Positions 28,612 to 50,756 of a DNA stretch of 64,000 nt are shown here, piece by piece. Made by a program: the position numbers and the translations under genes. The first letter of the stretch is position 1. Each line of letters begins with the position of its first letter. The notes under the pieces are model-generated. The model had not been told where the DNA came from. It made no database searches and worked only from the letters and a program-made list of their open reading frames with translations. Source of the DNA: a virus; IMG/VR virus record IMGVR_UViG_3300045988_089740; one strand, given 5' to 3'.

Positions 28612-28682
28612 TGGAATGTAGCTCAGTGGTAGAGCAGTGACTTACAAGTCATGTGTCGCAGGTTCGATTCCTGCCTTTCCGA
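28612..28682 (+). tRNA. atypical tRNA-Val(TAC)-like gene with a non-7-nt anticodon loop
   Basis: Normal D-arm (gctc-agtggta-gagc) and T-arm (gcagg-TTCGATT-cctgc). The anticodon stem gtgac/gtcat leaves a 6-nt loop ttacaa (8 nt if the closing C-G opens). T:T mismatch in the acceptor stem. Confidence 0.45.
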
Positions 28683-38181: not shown

Positions 38182-38526
38182 ATGGCTTTTATGAAAACAA
38201 AACAGTATGAGTCAACTCCTAACATTCTCGAATCCGAGGTTGGGCTTGTACTGAAAACTTACACAGCAGACGCAACAAATGCAACGGCAGTAAATGATAA
38301 AAAAATCATCAAAGCAGGTTCCGTGTATCCGACAAATGGGACTGGTGCAAAAGGAATCGTATTTGAAGATGTTGATATGACAGATGATGCTAAAAGACCG
38401 ATTTCCGTGATTGTAGCAGGACGTGTCCTTGAGAAAAGACTACCAGTTACAGTCGACGAAACTGCAAAAACAGAGCTTACCGCGCAGGGAATTGTTTTTG
38501 TAACCACAACAGACCCAGTATTTTAA
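38182..38526 (+). CDS. Head decoration protein (lambda gpD-position)
   Basis: 114 aa immediately upstream of an E-like capsid gene, the same arrangement as lambda D-E. Confidence 0.5.
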   Translation: MAFMKTKQYESTPNILESEVGLVLKTYTADATNATAVNDKKIIKAGSVYPTNGTGAKGIVFEDVDMTDDAKRPISVIVAGRVLEKRLPVTVDETAKTELTAQGIVFVTTTDPVF

Positions 38527-38541
38527 GGAGGTATAGCCAAT

Positions 38542-39576
38542 ATGCCATACAATGTATTAGAAGCTATCACAGCAGAAGAAAGATTGAATTTTGCTCAGAA
38601 TTTTTCTGTGGCAAGACCTGGTATTCTCGATACCATTTTCCCGGATGTAAAGACACCGTTTTGGAAAGCCGAATATTACAGACTTATGGCTGGACAACGA
38701 CTGCCGGAGGTAGCGTTCGTTCATGCACTCGATACTGAAGCAGAGATCGGCTCCAGACCAGGATTTGAGAAAGTTCTGACTGAAAAACTCTTTATCAAGA
38801 GGAAAATCAATCAGTCAGAGCGTCTCCAGGAAGCTATCGAAAATGGTGTTCCGGATGATGAAACTCTTACAAACTTTGTTTTTGACGATGCGACAAACCT
38901 GTTTGAAGGTGTTGTTGGAAGGGCAAACATCATGAAAGGCCAATTCCTTTCAACCGGTATGGTAAAAATTGATGAAAACAATGTGAAAATGAATATCGAT
39001 TATGGCGTACCAAGTAATGCAAAGGTTGATCTTACCGACTGGTCCGCAGCAGACGCAGATATCATGGGCGATATTCAGAAGATGGTAACTGTAGCCGAGG
39101 ATTCTGGATATGTAGTGACAAATGCAGTCACATCTCTGAAGATGATCAACTATATGAGAAACAACACAGCTATGCAGACGGCTGTTCTGGGAGCTGCGAA
39201 TAAACGTCTCCTTACCAGACAGGAGCTTGCAAATCTGCTCATGCAGGAGTACGGAATCACCATTGGTCGTTGCGATGAGAAATTCTGTTACAGAAAAGCA
39301 GACGGAACTCGGTCAACTGGAAGATACTTTAAGGAGGATGTATTTACTCTTTACGAAGCTGATGCAGGCGGTTCTTTCGGTACTGGACTTTGGGGACCAA
39401 CACCGGAAGAGAATGAATACAGACAGTTCATCCAGGAAGAGAACCGTTCTTTCGTTACTCTTTCCATGTGGGCTACACAGGATCCAGTTGCCGTATGGAC
39501 AAAAGCATCCGGTATGTTCATCCCGGTAGCACCGAAAGCCAACGGCGGTATCGTTATCGGTACAAAGGGGGAATAA
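38542..39576 (+). CDS. Major capsid protein (lambda gpE-like)
   Basis: 344 aa; position and size fit. Family assignment is from memory of the E-like N-terminus and overall pattern. Confidence 0.8.
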   Translation: MPYNVLEAITAEERLNFAQNFSVARPGILDTIFPDVKTPFWKAEYYRLMAGQRLPEVAFVHALDTEAEIGSRPGFEKVLTEKLFIKRKINQSERLQEAIENGVPDDETLTNFVFDDATNLFEGVVGRANIMKGQFLSTGMVKIDENNVKMNIDYGVPSNAKVDLTDWSAADADIMGDIQKMVTVAEDSGYVVTNAVTSLKMINYMRNNTAMQTAVLGAANKRLLTRQELANLLMQEYGITIGRCDEKFCYRKADGTRSTGRYFKEDVFTLYEADAGGSFGTGLWGPTPEENEYRQFIQEENRSFVTLSMWATQDPVAVWTKASGMFIPVAPKANGGIVIGTKGE

Positions 39577-39764
39577 GCGGGCATAGCCTTGATGAAAACA
39601 GCCAGTCACCGTCTGTAGCTAGTGTTACACATAAGTATACAGAAAGCGAGCTGTCCAGTATGACAGTGGCTCAACTGAGACAGCTTGCAAGTGACAATGG
39701 TTATGCCCTGACTTCCACAAACAAGGCTGGTATCATATCAGAGATTATAGCACAGCAAGGGTAG
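39570..39764 (+). CDS. putative -1 frameshift extension of the capsid protein carrying a HeH (Rho-N/SAP-like) domain
   Basis: Slippery A_AAG_GGG at 39564-39570, 2 codons before the MCP stop. The -1 frame is open to 39764 and encodes ...ELSSMTVAQLRQLASDNGYALTSTNKAGIISEIIAQQG. There is no SD or start for an independent gene before the ATG at 39660. Confidence 0.45.
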   Translation, partial: GISGHSLDENSQSPSVASVTHKYTESELSSMTVAQLRQLASDNGYALTSTNKAGIISEIIAQQG

Positions 39765-39774
39765 GTGAAATGGC

Positions 39775-40098
39775 ATGGACGAACAGCTTACAAGTGATCT
39801 AGCAATGTATCTGGAAGGTGATGAACAGACTGCAAGGATGATTCCTTTGGCAGTCAAAAGAGCTATTCGGTCATTCCAGAAAAAACGCAATTATCCTGAG
39901 AGTTATACGGAAGAAAACATCAATAAAGATATGGACAAATGCTATGATTGTATTTTCGATTTGGCTCTTTATTTTCTTGTGAAACAGGGAGTTGAGTTTG
40001 AAACATCTCATTCGGAAAATTCTGTAAATGCAGGATGGAACTCCGAAACAGAGATATTTGTCAATCATGGCGTTTTTCCATTTGCCAGAGGAATCTGA
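39775..40098 (+). CDS. Head-tail connector (gp6-like) protein
   Basis: 107 aa directly after the capsid gene. Confidence 0.5.
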   Translation: MDEQLTSDLAMYLEGDEQTARMIPLAVKRAIRSFQKKRNYPESYTEENINKDMDKCYDCIFDLALYFLVKQGVEFETSHSENSVNAGWNSETEIFVNHGVFPFARGI

Positions 40099-40210: not shown

Positions 40211-40522
40211 ATGGGATGTGAACAGAATTGCTTTAACGAACACCGCTTAGAAGAATTGGAAAAAGTTGTTCACGAAATGAAAGAGAAACATTCTAAACGT
40301 GACGGAATTTTTTTTGAACGTATCAATGCGCTTGAGACCAAAATCGTTCTTTACAACAATAATCTCGGACACATAAAAAAAACGGTAGATGAAATGAATG
40401 ATAATTTAAAATCCCTTATGGAAGCCCCGGCAAAACGCTACGATACGATTGTTGTTTGCGTTATCACAGCAGTAATCGGGGCTATTGTAGGGTTTGCGTT
40501 AAGCGGTATTTTTCCGGTATAA
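40211..40522 (+). CDS. XhlA-like protein (coiled coil plus C-terminal TM)
   Basis: 103 aa. N-terminal coiled coil and C-terminal TM segment TIVVCVITAVIGAIVGFALSGIF. Confidence 0.45.
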   Translation: MGCEQNCFNEHRLEELEKVVHEMKEKHSKRDGIFFERINALETKIVLYNNNLGHIKKTVDEMNDNLKSLMEAPAKRYDTIVVCVITAVIGAIVGFALSGIFPV

Positions 40523-40560
40523 CAAGCAATTCCACTTGTAAGGGAGGATGGTGGAATTAT

Positions 40561-40815
40561 ATGAATTATACAGACTTTTCAGAAGATGAAAGAAAGTTTT
40601 ATCTAAGTGAATCCGGGTTTGATTCCCGAGAAAAAGAGTTTTTCCGGTTGAGAGTTTATGAGGAAAAGACGTTGTTTGAAACAGCAGAGATTATGGGGTA
40701 TAGTCCTAGAACCATTGACCGTATAAACCGAAAAGTAAAAAAGAAGATTGTTAAAGTTGCCCCGATGTACTATCGGGGCTTTTCTTTGTATCATGGCGAA
40801 AACATGGCGAAATAG
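40561..40815 (+). CDS. sigma-70 region-4-like HTH protein
   Basis: SREKEFFRLRVYEEKTLFETAEIMGYSPRTIDRINRKVKKKI. ATG 40561 follows AAGGGAGGA. Confidence 0.55.
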   Translation: MNYTDFSEDERKFYLSESGFDSREKEFFRLRVYEEKTLFETAEIMGYSPRTIDRINRKVKKKIVKVAPMYYRGFSLYHGENMAK

Positions 40816-40891
40816 TGTCGTTTAAATACTTAAGTTTCTCCCCTATAATATAAGTATAGAGAAAAGCTTACAGAGATGGGAGGAACACACT

Positions 40892-41392
40892 ATGGCATTT
40901 TATCCATATTATCCACAACCATTGAACCCATATCCACAAACACCGGTACAACCGTATCAAGATAGATTGGCACAGTTGCAGAACAACTACCAACAGGCAA
41001 TGCCTTATGGACAGACACAAATACAACAACCGGTACAACAGATGCCACAGGTTGCCATGCTTCCGGGACAGATGGTTGATGGTATTGACACTGTAAAAGC
41101 AAAGGATGTGGATATGACCGGGAATCCTGTCTATTATCCAAAAACAGATGGTACAGAAATATATAAAAAGCAACTACAGGCAGACGGAAAAAGCAGAATT
41201 TTTGTTTACCGGATTATTGATCCAGACGAACAGCAGCAACCAAAGCCCGAAGAAAAACCGATTGACATAGAAGCTATGTTTAATCAGCTGCGGAACGATG
41301 TTTGTTCTGAGATTTCTGAAATAAAGAGCATGTTCCCAACGCAGATGCCGGGAACACCGGAACCCAAACAGAATGGAGGGAAACAGAGATGA
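40892..41392 (+). CDS. P/Q/Y-rich low-complexity protein with a small globular C-terminal half
   Basis: MAFYPYYPQPLNPYPQTPVQPYQDRLAQLQNNYQQAMPYGQTQIQQPVQQMPQ... Confidence 0.6.
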   Translation: MAFYPYYPQPLNPYPQTPVQPYQDRLAQLQNNYQQAMPYGQTQIQQPVQQMPQVAMLPGQMVDGIDTVKAKDVDMTGNPVYYPKTDGTEIYKKQLQADGKSRIFVYRIIDPDEQQQPKPEEKPIDIEAMFNQLRNDVCSEISEIKSMFPTQMPGTPEPKQNGGKQR

Positions 41393-41634
41393 GCTTCAAC
41401 CCAAACGCCATGATGAAAATGCAAGTTGAAAGAATGATTTCTCAGAGGTTCGGAAGTGTTGATAACATGATGAACGATATGAGTAAATTTGCAGGAAATA
41501 ATCCAACATTGAAAAATGCTTTGGATTTGTATAAAAAAGGTGACACAAACCAGTTACATCAAATACAGCAAAATGTATTTAATGAAAAACACTTATCACC
41601 AGACGGAATTATCCAGAAATTCCTTGGATTATAA
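41389..41634 (+). CDS. hypothetical protein (Met/Asn-rich)
   Basis: 81-aa ORF with ATGA overlap. Confidence 0.55.
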   Translation: MSFNPNAMMKMQVERMISQRFGSVDNMMNDMSKFAGNNPTLKNALDLYKKGDTNQLHQIQQNVFNEKHLSPDGIIQKFLGL

Positions 41635-41730
41635 CACTTCCCCATGATTGGGTGATTTAAAATCGCTACAATTTGGGATGACAGCCGCGGATGTCTCCTA
41701 TTGTAAATAATATTTAAGGAGACTAAAAAC

Positions 41731-42543
41731 ATGATGAATGGTTCTAATTACAGTCTTAGCGACATTGCAGCTGCTACAGGCTCTAATAACCGTGCCAATG
41801 ACATGTGGGGCGGCGATGGTTTTTCACTTATTTGGCTCGTGCTGATCTTCGCAATCTTCGGATGGGGAGGTTTCGGCGGCTGGGGCGGTGGCTTCGGCGG
41901 TAATGGTGGAAATGGTGCAAACGGTGCCGGTTTCCAAGGATGGGCTACACGTGCCGATATCAATGAGAGCTTTGCTCTTAACGATATCCAGAACGGTATC
42001 AGAGGTATTCAGCAGGGTATCTGCGACAGCACATATGCGCTCAACAATACCATGCAGAGCGGTTTCAACGGCATGAACGTTGGAATGCTTCAGGGCTTCA
42101 ATGGCGTTCAGCAGGCAATCAATGCTGATACTGTAGCCGGTATGCAGAATACCAATGCATTACAGTCTCAGTTAGCAAACTGCTGTTGTGAAACCAGGGA
42201 AGCTATCCAGGGCATCAACTACAACCTGGCTACCAACACTTGTGCTCTTCAGAACACAATGAACAACAACACCAGAGATCTTCTGGAAAATCAGAACAGC
42301 AACACGAGAGCAATCCTTGATTTCCTGACAAATGATAAGATTGCAACATTACAGGCAGAGAACTCTGACCTGAAACGTGCTGCATCTCAGGATCGCCAGA
42401 GTGCACTGCTTACAACTGCAATGGCTTCTCAGACACAGCAGCTCATTAATGCAATCAATCCGGCAGCTATCCCGGCATACGTTGTTCCGAATCCAAACAC
42501 CTACTACGGTGGATGCAACGGATACAGCAACGGTTGCTGCTAA
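41731..42543 (+). CDS. Gly-rich membrane-anchored Q/N-rich protein with Cys-rich C-terminus
   Basis: TM segment FSLIWLVLIFAIFGW, then GGFGGWGGGFGGNGGNGANGAG, a long Q/N-rich helical region containing CCC, and a C-terminal GGCNGYSNGCC. Confidence 0.65.
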   Translation: MMNGSNYSLSDIAAATGSNNRANDMWGGDGFSLIWLVLIFAIFGWGGFGGWGGGFGGNGGNGANGAGFQGWATRADINESFALNDIQNGIRGIQQGICDSTYALNNTMQSGFNGMNVGMLQGFNGVQQAINADTVAGMQNTNALQSQLANCCCETREAIQGINYNLATNTCALQNTMNNNTRDLLENQNSNTRAILDFLTNDKIATLQAENSDLKRAASQDRQSALLTTAMASQTQQLINAINPAAIPAYVVPNPNTYYGGCNGYSNGCC

Positions 42544-42620
42544 GTAACTCACCCTTAGAGGTTGACTAATTCTAAGAGGTGGGTTGTGGCTCACCTCTTA
42601 TTTGATTGAGAGGTAGAAGT

Positions 42621-43046
42621 ATGAGTTGTAAAAACGTTTGTAAGCTCTGCAATCGTCTTGTGATAAGCCAAGCTGTTGCATTTACTGGTGGTAATCTTGT
42701 GATTACACTTCCAGCAGGTAGTTATAACAATGGTGAAAAATATTGCATTGTGATTGCACAGAGCATACCAGAAACCACTACGATTAACGCTCCGGTGATG
42801 ATTCAAATAGGAACGGGAACAACCCTGTATCCATTACAGAATCGTTGCTGTGCACAGGTTACGGCTTGTGGCGTAAGAACCAGAACGAAGTACGCAACCA
42901 GAGTAGCCACAAATGCAACCGGTGGAGTGTTCAAGATGTTAGGGAATCCGGCTTGTAGTCCGAGTAACAATTTGACAGCAATTAATGGTACAGCCCCAAC
43001 AGCAGATACACCTGTTACACAGGCTGTTAGAAAGGGGGCACTGTAA
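42621..43046 (+). CDS. Cys-rich beta-type protein
   Basis: MSCKNVCKLCNRL...RCCAQVTACG...; ATG 42621 follows GAGAGGTAGAAG. The ORF opens at 42606. Confidence 0.6.
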   Translation: MSCKNVCKLCNRLVISQAVAFTGGNLVITLPAGSYNNGEKYCIVIAQSIPETTTINAPVMIQIGTGTTLYPLQNRCCAQVTACGVRTRTKYATRVATNATGGVFKMLGNPACSPSNNLTAINGTAPTADTPVTQAVRKGAL

Positions 43047-43672
43047 TGCATAAAGTTGCAATGGAAATGGGAAAATGGGCTATGGAAAAAGCCAAGACAC
43101 ATGGCTTCGATAATCTCAGTGCTCAAGACTGGGACGATCTGAAGGACTGCATGGAATCCGTAAAGTGTGCGATTTGTGCAGATAAAGATTACAGAATCGT
43201 AGAAGCTATGGACGAATGCGAACAGGAAGAGAAGTATCTTGGACGCATGGGATATGACAGGTATCGTTACGCAAACGGCAGATTCGCCCCGAAAGGCAAA
43301 GGAAGTCGTATGGGATATAAACCATATCTGTACATGGAAGATGATGACTGGATGGACGAGTATCTGAACAATCCAGAGTTCGAACGTAATATATACCGCA
43401 TGGGTTATCATCCAGACCGTAGTGATATGAGGATGGATGGAATGAACCATAAGCAGTCCAGATACGGTGAAACCTACGACAGATACAGTGAAAATCGCAG
43501 GCATTACCACGATTCCAATGATACAGAATCCAAGAGAAAAATGGACGAGTCCATGAAAGAGTATACACAAGATGTCATCCGCACGATGTCTGAAATGTGG
43601 TCGGATGCAGACGCGAATCTCAAACAGCAGATAAGAACTGATCTGACCCGTCTGATACAGCAGATGAATTAA
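43046..43672 (+). CDS. Tyr/Arg/Asp/Met-rich protein with three RMGY repeats
   Basis: LGRMGYDRYRY, GSRMGYKPYLY, IYRMGYHPDRS. The strong antisense ORF 42803..43675 is treated as a shadow. Confidence 0.6.
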   Translation: MHKVAMEMGKWAMEKAKTHGFDNLSAQDWDDLKDCMESVKCAICADKDYRIVEAMDECEQEEKYLGRMGYDRYRYANGRFAPKGKGSRMGYKPYLYMEDDDWMDEYLNNPEFERNIYRMGYHPDRSDMRMDGMNHKQSRYGETYDRYSENRRHYHDSNDTESKRKMDESMKEYTQDVIRTMSEMWSDADANLKQQIRTDLTRLIQQMN

Positions 43673-49881: not shown

Positions 49882-50358
49882 ATGTATAAACTTTTAAAGA
49901 TTGGTAGCAAAGAGTATAAACTGGAATACGGCATTGAAGCATCTTTGTATGATGATTGTGTCAAGAGTGTAATGAACACACTTCTGGCAACAAGCGGTGG
50001 TGTGGACAAAACGCCGGAAGAAATGATTTCCGGCATGGCAAATATTCCGAGCACAGCATTAACCGTGTTTTATGCAGGACTTCTTCAGTATCATGGCGAC
50101 AACCCGGATGCAGACGGTTCTGTTCCGACTCTTGCAACTGCGAAGAAACTTGCAGCACAATTTATTCAGGAACATAAGGACGATGAGCAGGGTAACTTTT
50201 ACGGTATCTTTACCATGTGTCTTGACCAGATGGAGGAAGACGGTTTTTTCAAACTGACCGGTCTGGAGACGTTCATGGGCGATCTGAACGTAGCAGCCAA
50301 ACCGAAGAAAACTCCGAAGAAGCCGACAGATCACCAGAAAAAAGCTACAGCGAAATAA
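49882..50358 (+). CDS. Tail assembly chaperone (gpG-like)
   Basis: Position before the tape measure; acidic/Lys-rich C-terminus. Confidence 0.6.
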   Translation: MYKLLKIGSKEYKLEYGIEASLYDDCVKSVMNTLLATSGGVDKTPEEMISGMANIPSTALTVFYAGLLQYHGDNPDADGSVPTLATAKKLAAQFIQEHKDDEQGNFYGIFTMCLDQMEEDGFFKLTGLETFMGDLNVAAKPKKTPKKPTDHQKKATAK

Positions 50359-50756
50359 TCTGGACAGAGTTATATCCGGCGGCAGTTCGCATCGGAATGA
50401 GCCGGAAAGAATTTCTCAGAAGTACCATACGTGACCTTCAAGTAAGGATACGTGAGTACGAGAAAGGTAAACGTGATGAAATAGAAACTCAGGTAAAACT
50501 GATTGAATATCAGTCATGGCTTTCCGGCTTATATGTGAAATCTGCGGTATCAAGTGCACTTTCTGGCAAAGCAAAATATCCAGATAAACCAATCACAGAA
50601 AAAACAAAGAAACCACAGCTTGAAGAAAAAACAGATGTTCCGAAACGGTCTGAAGCTGAATTGAAGCAGGAAGAACGTTACTACGAACTTCTGATAAAAA
50701 AGGCAAATGCGAATATCGCTGAGATAGGAAGTGAAGAGGGCAGACAGGATGAATAA
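50343..50756 (+). CDS. gpT-like part of the chaperone, reached by a -1 frameshift
   Basis: G_AAA_AAA at 50337-50343. The -1 frame is open from at least 50283 and reads ...IIWTELYPAAVRIGMSRKEFLRSTIRDL... Confidence 0.5.
   Translation, partial: SYSEIIWTELYPAAVRIGMSRKEFLRSTIRDLQVRIREYEKGKRDEIETQVKLIEYQSWLSGLYVKSAVSSALSGKAKYPDKPITEKTKKPQLEEKTDVPKRSEAELKQEERYYELLIKKANANIAEIGSEEGRQDE

Follow-up and report, generated by a model that had tools for sequence, protein, structure and literature searches.

The 64,000-nucleotide stretch of viral DNA held in IMG/VR as record IMGVR_UViG_3300045988_089740 (hereafter the window, meaning the whole stretch that was analysed) contains a major capsid protein gene that ends in ...GGT ACA AAG GGG GAA TAA, and the -1 frame is open across and beyond this end. 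The locus therefore raises the question of whether the small open reading frame (ORF) that follows the capsid gene is expressed as a protein of its own, or whether ribosomes that change frame at the end of the capsid gene turn it into a C-terminal extension of part of the capsid protein. Based on a comparison with about 175 related gut-phage contigs, we consider it probable that a programmed -1 frameshift at the capsid end gives rise to a 407-aa capsid variant. Extension of the capsid protein by a -1 frameshift has been described for T3/T7 gene 10, Lactobacillus phage A2 and Listeria phages A118/A500, and among relatives such extensions arise by frameshift or in frame (PMC5009743). A preliminary description of this locus had proposed a shift of this kind and had named Listeria phages as a precedent, which is correct for A118/A500 (PMC5009743).

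The capsid gene and the -1 frame beyond it

The elements on which the question turns are the following:

38542..39576, + strand: major capsid protein gene, 344 aa, 38.35 kDa, frame 0, stop TAA at 39574-39576
39564..39570, + strand: slippery site A_AAG_GGG in X_XXY_YYZ register, with G_GGG (39567-39570) as its recurrent core among relatives
39570..39764, + strand: -1-frame extension ORF, 64 codons plus the stop TAG at 39762-39764

The sequence statements of the preliminary description, namely the capsid end, the heptamer at 39564-39570 with its register, and a -1 frame open to 39764, were all accurate. Reading after a slip would proceed as AAA GGG GGA ATA AGC GGG CAT..., translated as ...IGTKGGISGHSLDEN..., and the computed trans-frame product has 407 aa (44.88 kDa), which is 63 aa more than the capsid protein (38.35 kDa). 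The predicted tryptic peptide across its junction is GGISGHSLDENSQSPSVASVTHK.

As in-frame X_XXY_YYZ heptamers are common (53 in the 8,023 codons of the window's genes), a heptamer by itself means little. The capsid site is the only one of the 53 with more than 45 open -1 codons after it (64, the next longest being 45), and the only one among the window's genes that has such an ORF and also lies within four codons of a stop. GGG is the rarest glycine codon (10%), and a single one of the 27 glycine codons in the capsid gene is GGG, the site's own.

The gene was assigned to the Phage_cap_E / HK97-fold major capsid proteins by profile, by fold and by its position in the head module. Its product scored 47 bits against PF03864 Phage_cap_E (cut-off 22.9) and matched phrog_29 'major head protein' with an E-value of 2.9e-37. 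A search of the PDB by sequence returned no match and a fold search was needed; the natural fusion homologue P0022 as modelled by AlphaFold, with a predicted local distance difference test score (pLDDT) of 91, matched the HK97-fold capsids YSD1, Chi, lambda gpE, P23-45 and HK97 with E-values down to 7e-16. The genes of the head module are ordered portal (SPP1_portal), scaffold-like protein, gpD-like decoration protein and capsid.

Relatives and the switch of reading frame

A scan of IMG/VR returned 505 capsid relatives, the best 80 of which (85-99% aa identity) were analysed, together with 16 further loci from Logan and ENA assemblies and 80 further IMG/VR contigs from a pattern scan, the pattern of which itself requires G5 followed by AATAA. 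All but one of the 80 closest relatives have an open -1 ORF; the exception, L065, has the extension fused to the capsid in frame. Among the pattern-scan contigs it was open in all of the 76 (of 80) that are not cut by a contig end, over 63-69 codons. Relatives differ in the length of the first part of the extension, and all of these differences are multiples of three, that is, in-frame indels.

The ratio of nonsynonymous to synonymous substitution rates (dN/dS) was estimated by the method of Nei and Gojobori (NG86) on 12 representative alleles, 11 of them non-fused, with these results for the three frames:

39470-39563 (capsid 3' end): capsid frame 0.02, -1 frame 3.19, +1 frame 4.21
39577-39659 (linker): capsid frame 1.57, -1 frame 0.10, +1 frame 0.91
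39660-39761 (domain): capsid frame 3.02, -1 frame 0.07, +1 frame 0.93

Diversity at third codon positions changed in the same way, following frame 0 as far as the capsid stop and frame -1 beyond it. Since 39577-39659 is constrained in the -1 frame, we conclude that the segment from the capsid stop to the first ATG of the extension is translated in that frame. Upstream of the site, on these substitution ratios, the -1 frame is not translated.

Start codons available to the extension

The extension contains one candidate start:

39660..39662, + strand: internal ATG (Met31 of the extension), conserved in all relatives; no other canonical start lies within the extension

In about 41 of the 81 aligned sequences, the -1 frame has a stop 30-33 nt upstream of 39570. 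This stop, a TAA at the position equivalent to 39540-39542, is formed from GCT AAT of the capsid frame, and none of those sequences has an ATG, GTG or TTG between it and the internal Met. Because the -1 frame is thus closed upstream with no later start, and because the capsid frame ends at 39574-39576, the change of frame must fall within 39543..39576. The only re-pairing sites inside this interval are A_AAG and G_GGG.

Shine-Dalgarno (SD) pairing was -4.4 kcal/mol or weaker at ATA 39573, ATG 39495, GTG 39468 and ATG 39660; at six of seven neighbouring gene starts it ranged from -8.8 to -13.1 kcal/mol. The codon that overlaps the capsid stop is ATA in at least 119 IMG/VR contigs, which carry GGGGGAATAA, and the TGA stop that would turn it into ATG had no match in the IMG/VR scan. 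According to the preliminary description, the ORF has neither an SD nor a start of its own before an ATG at 39660 that itself lacks an SD. It is true that ATG 39660 is the first canonical start in the extension and that its SD is weak; that account did not mention that the open -1 frame of the window reaches back upstream as far as GTG 39468 and ATG 39495, forming a 98-aa ORF. We rejected this overlapping ORF on its -1-frame dN/dS of 3.2 upstream of the site, the stop present in about half of the relatives, and its want of an SD.

Reading of TAG as glutamine was likewise considered for the window and rejected, since the window encodes no suppressor tRNA, its long ORFs are uninterrupted under code 11 and TAG is in use as a terminator of long ORFs. 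Among relatives, the database gene calls P0018-P0020 read the TAG of the extension as Gln (...SQQGQVIL...), presumably because they come from pipelines that apply a TAG-recoded code.

Natural in-frame fusions

When the predicted 407-aa product was searched against a protein database, five clusters of 411-412 aa matched it with 100% coverage (P0022, P0023, P0028, P0029 and P0030). Their junctions read ...GTKGGITGHS..., ...GTKAGGITGHS... or ...GTKAGEITGHS..., and the following changes in the DNA fuse the two frames:

G5 to G6: P0022; loci L085 and L086; restores one frame
GAATAA to GAAATAA (+A): P0029 and P0030; six contigs, four of them read (L081-L084), from four different samples and including a 78.6-kb contig
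11-nt deletion AATAAGCGGGC, which removes the stop: L065, an IMG/VR contig

P0023 and P0028, which have the AGGIT-type junction, are known at the protein level only. The three indels arose independently and all reproduce the predicted junction; a capsid protein covalently joined to the extension is therefore viable. G6 and +A junctions were not found in the IMG/VR scans, against at least 119 contigs with G5 and TAA; it was Logan and ENA assemblies alone that yielded the G6, +A and TGA alleles. As the fused alleles are rare, fusion is not the normal state of the genome. The non-fused alleles nevertheless have a constrained extension, and it must therefore be expressed from them.

Conservation of the slip site

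The codons around the site were tallied in 97 capsid- and protein-derived loci:

ACA AAG GGG GAA TAA (canonical heptamer A_AAG_GGG): 49 of 97 loci
ACG AAG GGG GAA TAA (G_AAG_GGG): 4 of 97 loci
GCG GGG GAA, then TAA or TGA: 30 of 97 loci
GCG GGG AAA TAA: 1 of 97 loci
AAG GGA AAA TAA (creates G_GGA_AAA): 2 of 97 loci
AAG AGG GAA TAA (A_AAG only): 1 of 97 loci
In-frame fusions: 7 of 97 loci

G_GGG followed by one codon and a stop was present in 77 of the 80 loci of the capsid-derived set, which is unbiased in this respect. In the pattern-scan contigs, a set selected for G5, the codon before GGG was GCG, GTG or ACG in 56 of 80 (70%). A Z_ZZN re-pairing site within four codons of the stop was found in all 79 frameshift-type relatives, this being G_GGG in 77 and A_AAG or G_GGA in 2. 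The alignments thus indicate that the canonical heptamer is specific to a lineage and that the recurring element is G_GGG, one codon and a stop. The preliminary description had named conservation of the heptamer and of the open -1 frame as a check on its proposal; the frame came through it (open in 79 of 80, the 80th being fused), and in place of the heptamer it is G_GGG that recurs.

Z_ZZN is the minimal site for a -1 shift, and in pea enation mosaic virus (PEMV) a stop 3 nt 3' of the shift site matters (PMC5009743). The G_GGG site would fit both this minimal form and the PEMV-like geometry of shift site, one codon and stop.

Beyond the close relatives, no extension was found in MT835513 or in a metagenome-assembled genome of Clostridiales, whose capsids are 43-45% identical, nor in the A2-like phage iLp84. 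As capsids at 43-45% identity are without it, the SAP-like cargo described below is taken to be a clade-specific acquisition.

How the extension is expressed

The explanation that we favour is a -1 frameshift by the ribosome. At ...AAG GGG GAA TAA most ribosomes would terminate, yielding the 344-aa capsid protein, and a fraction would slip by -1, probably with tRNA-Gly on the rare GGG, which would re-pair at the overlapping GGG (39567-39569). In the lineage of the window tRNA-Lys could slip in tandem, from AAG to AAA, making use of the full A_AAG_GGG. Slipped ribosomes would bypass the stop one codon on and continue for 64 codons in the -1 frame. Their product would consist of the HK97-fold body, about 25 disordered Ser/Pro-rich residues and a SAP/helix-extension-helix (HeH)-like three-helix domain of about 40 residues. 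The long form would presumably co-assemble with the short form, and part of the subunits would then show the domain outside the head. The earlier proposal that a -1 shift appends a linker and a HeH/SAP-like domain to a fraction of the capsid thus gains support from the frame switch, the lack of an own start and the three fusion alleles.

Several observations weigh against a programmed frameshift. Much of the family does without the canonical heptamer. The relatives in which the extension occurs are all close (at least 80% capsid identity), so that conservation of single bases is of limited weight, and capsids at 43-45% identity occur without any extension. An SD is lacking at the classical distance of 10-14 nt upstream of the shift site. 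Single-sequence and alignment folds gave no convincing 3' RNA stimulator, only a weakly supported longer fold and this 4-bp hairpin:

39579..39589, + strand: small hairpin GGGC-AUA-GCCU, 4 bp, 8 nt 3' of the heptamer; possible weak stimulator

The hairpin was predicted in both kinds of fold, and a C-to-U change keeps the pair as G-U. In single sequences the regional fold energy was no better than that of shuffles (z -0.6 and +1.6), and the alignment fold, which pairs 39598-602 with 39649-53, has only three covarying cells. The stop one codon past the site may help shifting (PMC5009743). Lastly, the P0011 lineage (13 contigs, of which L092-L094 were read) has TGA as its capsid stop, which creates an overlapping ATGA. 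Such an ATGA overlap is the classical arrangement for coupled re-initiation.

Termination followed by re-initiation would let ribosomes resume at the AUA that overlaps the stop, which is AUG in one lineage, and produce a free protein of about 63 aa, made up of the tether and the SAP-like domain and not linked to the capsid. It would account for the fixed -1 relation and for the coding constraint on the linker, and a G-rich, SD-like run precedes the codon; in the P0011 lineage, the one with ATG (ATGA) where nearly all relatives have ATA, gene callers predict a 67-aa protein. AUA, however, is a very poor bacterial start, and the G-run stops only 2 nt short of it, a spacing too small for an SD to work. 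The ATG allele is a single capsid-silent transition away (TAA to TGA), yet it was found 0 times in IMG/VR against at least 119 for ATA. Moreover, the three independent covalent-fusion alleles, present in several samples, would abolish a free protein, and the 11-nt deletion of L065 removes the ATA itself. We regard re-initiation as unlikely. A variation of the G/A-run length at the DNA level, slipped-strand and phase-variation-like, would be the actual route to the fusion and leave the extension silent in the common G5 allele, which would express the short capsid only. Natural G6 and +A alleles do encode the fusion and homopolymer indels are frequent mutations, but the extension has a dN/dS of 0.07-0.10 among the 12 alleles of which 11 are non-fused, the fused alleles are rare in IMG/VR (no G6 or +A and the one 11-nt deletion in L065, versus at least 119 G5), and a run of 5 nt is short for high-frequency phase variation. 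This route is accordingly very unlikely.

The internal ATG 39660 could instead start a free SAP-like peptide of 34 aa, with 39577-39659 as an untranslated spacer. This codon is kept in all relatives as the only canonical start in the extension, and some gene callers use it (P0018-P0021). Against this, the supposed spacer is constrained in that same frame (dN/dS 0.10) and contains in-frame indels only, and no stop interrupts it in the approximately 155 loci that are complete there; the SD pairing is only -4.4 kcal/mol and the predicted first helix starts upstream of the Met. We give such a peptide a slight chance. Two predicted extension peptides fall outside a product of ATG 39660, namely GISGHSLDENSQSPSVASVTHK and YTESELSSMTVAQLR, the latter spanning the Met. 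Slippage during transcription, with RNA polymerase inserting an extra G into the G5 run of some mRNAs and thereby joining capsid and extension in frame, would give a product identical to that of the natural G6 allele. Productive transcriptional slippage in bacteria and phages needs a run of about 7-9 A or T. The G5 run differs from this, and relatives with only a G4 or a G3-A4 run still keep the ORF, which makes transcriptional slippage the least credible of these possibilities.

Linker and SAP-like domain

The extension is predicted to have two parts:

39570..39638, + strand: Ser/Pro-rich flexible linker, extension residues 1-23; pLDDT 46-66 in both AlphaFold models
39639..39761, + strand: SAP/HeH-like three-helix domain, extension residues 24-64; AlphaFold pLDDT above 90

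The linker is a hot spot of in-frame indels of 9-15 nt among relatives. The helices of the domain were predicted at residues 25-29, 33-43 and 52-63; a disordered linker and a confident three-helix unit resulted both when the extension was modelled alone and when it was modelled inside the full fusion. In a Foldseek search of the PDB the best match was the SAP domain of Tho1 (4uzw), with a root-mean-square deviation of 1.3 Å over 37 columns and a template modelling score of 0.63 on the target; other matches were Tho1 1h1j, the C-terminal domain of T4 endonuclease VII (1e7l), the C-terminal domain of CDNF, the SAP domain of PIAS1, 1v66 and Ku70. All of the Foldseek E-values were 1.8 or higher and not significant, because the domain is tiny.

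By sequence, the matches to Pfam families were below their cut-offs (given in brackets): SAP PF02037 with 15.3 bits (23.9), Rho_N PF07498 with 14.8 (24.9) and HeH PF12949 with 11.6 (28.9), each covering the first helix only. The extension matched phrog_3281 with an E-value of 5.5e-7. A phmmer search of the PDB gave no match, and a search of a 5.8-billion-protein database gave only close relatives. Near-identical ORFs in NR are named 'Rho termination factor, N-terminal domain' or 'E1B-55kDa-associated protein'. The models support a resemblance to the SAP/HeH fold, not membership of the family. A match to the HeH motif of Rho-N and SAP domains had been claimed in the preliminary description; as a resemblance of fold it finds support in the confident AlphaFold model, whose top PDB matches are SAP domains, and not in the Pfam scores, all of which are below threshold.

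Residues 24-64 have an isoelectric point (pI) of 4.4 and a net charge of about -2.6, and so do not present the basic surface of DNA-binding SAP domains. Because the domain is acidic, binding of nucleic acid is not favoured and a protein or other non-nucleic-acid partner is likelier; of the nucleic-acid or protein ligand first suggested, the charge favours the second. An immunoglobulin (Ig)-like beta-sandwich was not found either, the extension being all-alpha in the AlphaFold models.

Many distant capsid homologues (33-56% identity) carry SbsC-C, cadherin-like or Big_2 domains at the C-terminus in frame, as found by a full-library HMMER search, and these directly follow a conserved ...WTKASG.F.PV.P.P.G... 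end. The presence of such in-frame domains leads us to view the capsid C-terminus as a recurrent attachment point for displayed modules. By analogy, the SAP-like domain would be displayed on the outer surface of the head.

Comparison with known systems

The arrangement most resembles that of T7/T3 gene 10A/10B, where ribosomes that shift by -1 shortly before the 3' end of the major capsid gene produce a minor extended form that co-assembles with the major one, as is presumed here. The T7 extension is likewise not Ig-like (PMC5009743). In T7 the shift takes place at G_GUU_UUC and involves a distant 3' element, whereas the present site is (A_AA)G_GGG one codon before the stop, with no stimulator found; the capsid also belongs to another HK97-fold subfamily than that of T7, being lambda gpE-like, and the cargo is predicted to be SAP-like and to hang from a long tether.

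Lactobacillus phage A2 (gp5A/gp5B) and Listeria phages A118/A500 (Cps) are Firmicute siphophages with a frameshift extension at the 3' end of the capsid gene, PSA using a +1 shift, and in this group too, in-frame and frameshifted versions of the extension coexist among relatives (PMC5009743). The A2 extension is Ig-like, unlike the small all-alpha SAP/HeH-like domain found here, and in the A2-related phage iLp84, with a capsid 33% identical to that of the window, the corresponding region holds no such -1 ORF. A further parallel is offered by phage structural proteins that bear Ig-like domains (Fraser et al. 2006, cited in both PMC5009743 and PMC5221750), where an accessory domain likewise sits at the C-terminus of a virion protein, often reached by frameshifting; in the present case the domain is predicted to be helical and SAP-like instead of a beta-sandwich, and no carbohydrate-binding precedent applies.

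A -1 slip by a single tRNA or at a weak heptamer a few codons before a stop, leading to a C-terminal extension, is shared with Bacillus subtilis cdd (CGA_AAG), with other Z_ZZN tetranucleotide sites and with PEMV (PMC5009743). In cdd the shift is considered incidental and an upstream SD assists it, whereas the downstream ORF of the present locus is conserved and selected and no upstream SD is evident. With the SAP, HeH and Rho-N domains of Tho1, PIAS1, Ku70 and T4 endonuclease VII, the extension is predicted to share the architecture of helix, extended loop and helix; it differs in its sub-cut-off sequence scores, in being acidic and not basic, and in its capsid-tethered context. Literature searches returned no relevant report of a SAP or Rho_N domain in association with either a capsid or frameshifting. 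The frameshift device is known in phages and the appended domain is new; the locus differs from the known cases in its acidic, SAP-like instead of Ig-like cargo, in a minimal G_GGG site beside the stop with no evident stimulator, and in the coexistence of frameshift-type and fused alleles.

For an abundant group of gut phages, public annotation splits this locus into a 344-aa capsid and a small ORF of 42-95 aa with invented starts. The split-off ORF is named "Rho termination factor N-terminal domain", and recognition of the frameshift corrects hundreds of contigs. A non-Ig, SAP-like cargo would join the repertoire of capsid-displayed domains, and for engineering, the capsids of this family seem to offer a permissive site of display at their C-terminus. 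The frameshift-dependent and constitutive-fusion alleles constitute a natural experiment on the ratio of long to short form in assembly, stability and gut adhesion.

More tentatively, and with odds that we put well on the low side, the tethered acidic SAP-like domain could represent an unrecognised class of capsid accessory module, whose copy number would be set by the efficiency of the frameshift and could be reset to 100% by one mutation. It would then be a naturally tunable surface ligand, for example for a partner in the host envelope, in mucus or among phage proteins. The +G, +A and deletion alleles already circulate in human gut samples.

Other features of the genome

The gene that follows the extension is closely spaced with it:

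39775..40098, + strand: next gene, 107 aa, no family match; its SD GGTAGGTGA overlaps the extension stop, SD pairing -9.0 kcal/mol

Directly upstream of the capsid gene, 38182-38526 (+) encodes a decoration-like protein of 114 aa (PHROG 909/3583, weak match to lambda gpD). In the distant relatives without a capsid extension this protein has 184-185 aa with an extra C-terminal domain (L087 1919-2476; L089 928-1482), and the accessory domain may there ride on the decoration protein and not on the capsid. A stop-loss allele of the capsid was observed in the relative P0061 (351 aa), where frame 0 ends in ...GTKGEQAGIVSM, 7 residues further on; the change is probably TAA to CAA, judging from the protein. 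P0061 shows that the exact C-terminal residues of the short capsid form are not critical.

Between the post-capsid gene and the tail genes, a block of small genes is inserted in the structural module (40211-43670, +) and is conserved in relatives. It encodes an 84-aa protein with a Sigma-70 region 4 helix-turn-helix (PF04545, 24.8 bits, just over the cut-off), a Q/P-rich protein of 166 aa, a Gly-rich protein of 270 aa with a Cys-rich C-terminus, and others without a family match.

At 28612-28682 (+), ARAGORN reported a tRNA with an undetermined two-base anticodon ('ac'). Inspected by eye, its anticodon stem is GTGAC/GTCAT and its loop has 6 nt (TTACAA) instead of 7. It resembles a tRNA-Val(UAC) without one loop base and could be a pseudogene or an unusual decoder. 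This tRNA clusters with tRNA-Gln(TTG) and two tRNA-Met, with no apparent link to the Lys, Gly and Glu codons of the shift site.

A second likely -1 frameshift of the genome lies in the tail-assembly-chaperone G/GT arrangement at 49882-50756 (+), upstream of the gene for a 1613-aa tape measure protein. The G ORF (49882..50358) ends in CAC CAG AAA AAA GCT ACA GCG AAA TAA, with G_AAA_AAA five codons before its stop (A-run 50337-50343), and the -1 frame is open over 50226-50756.

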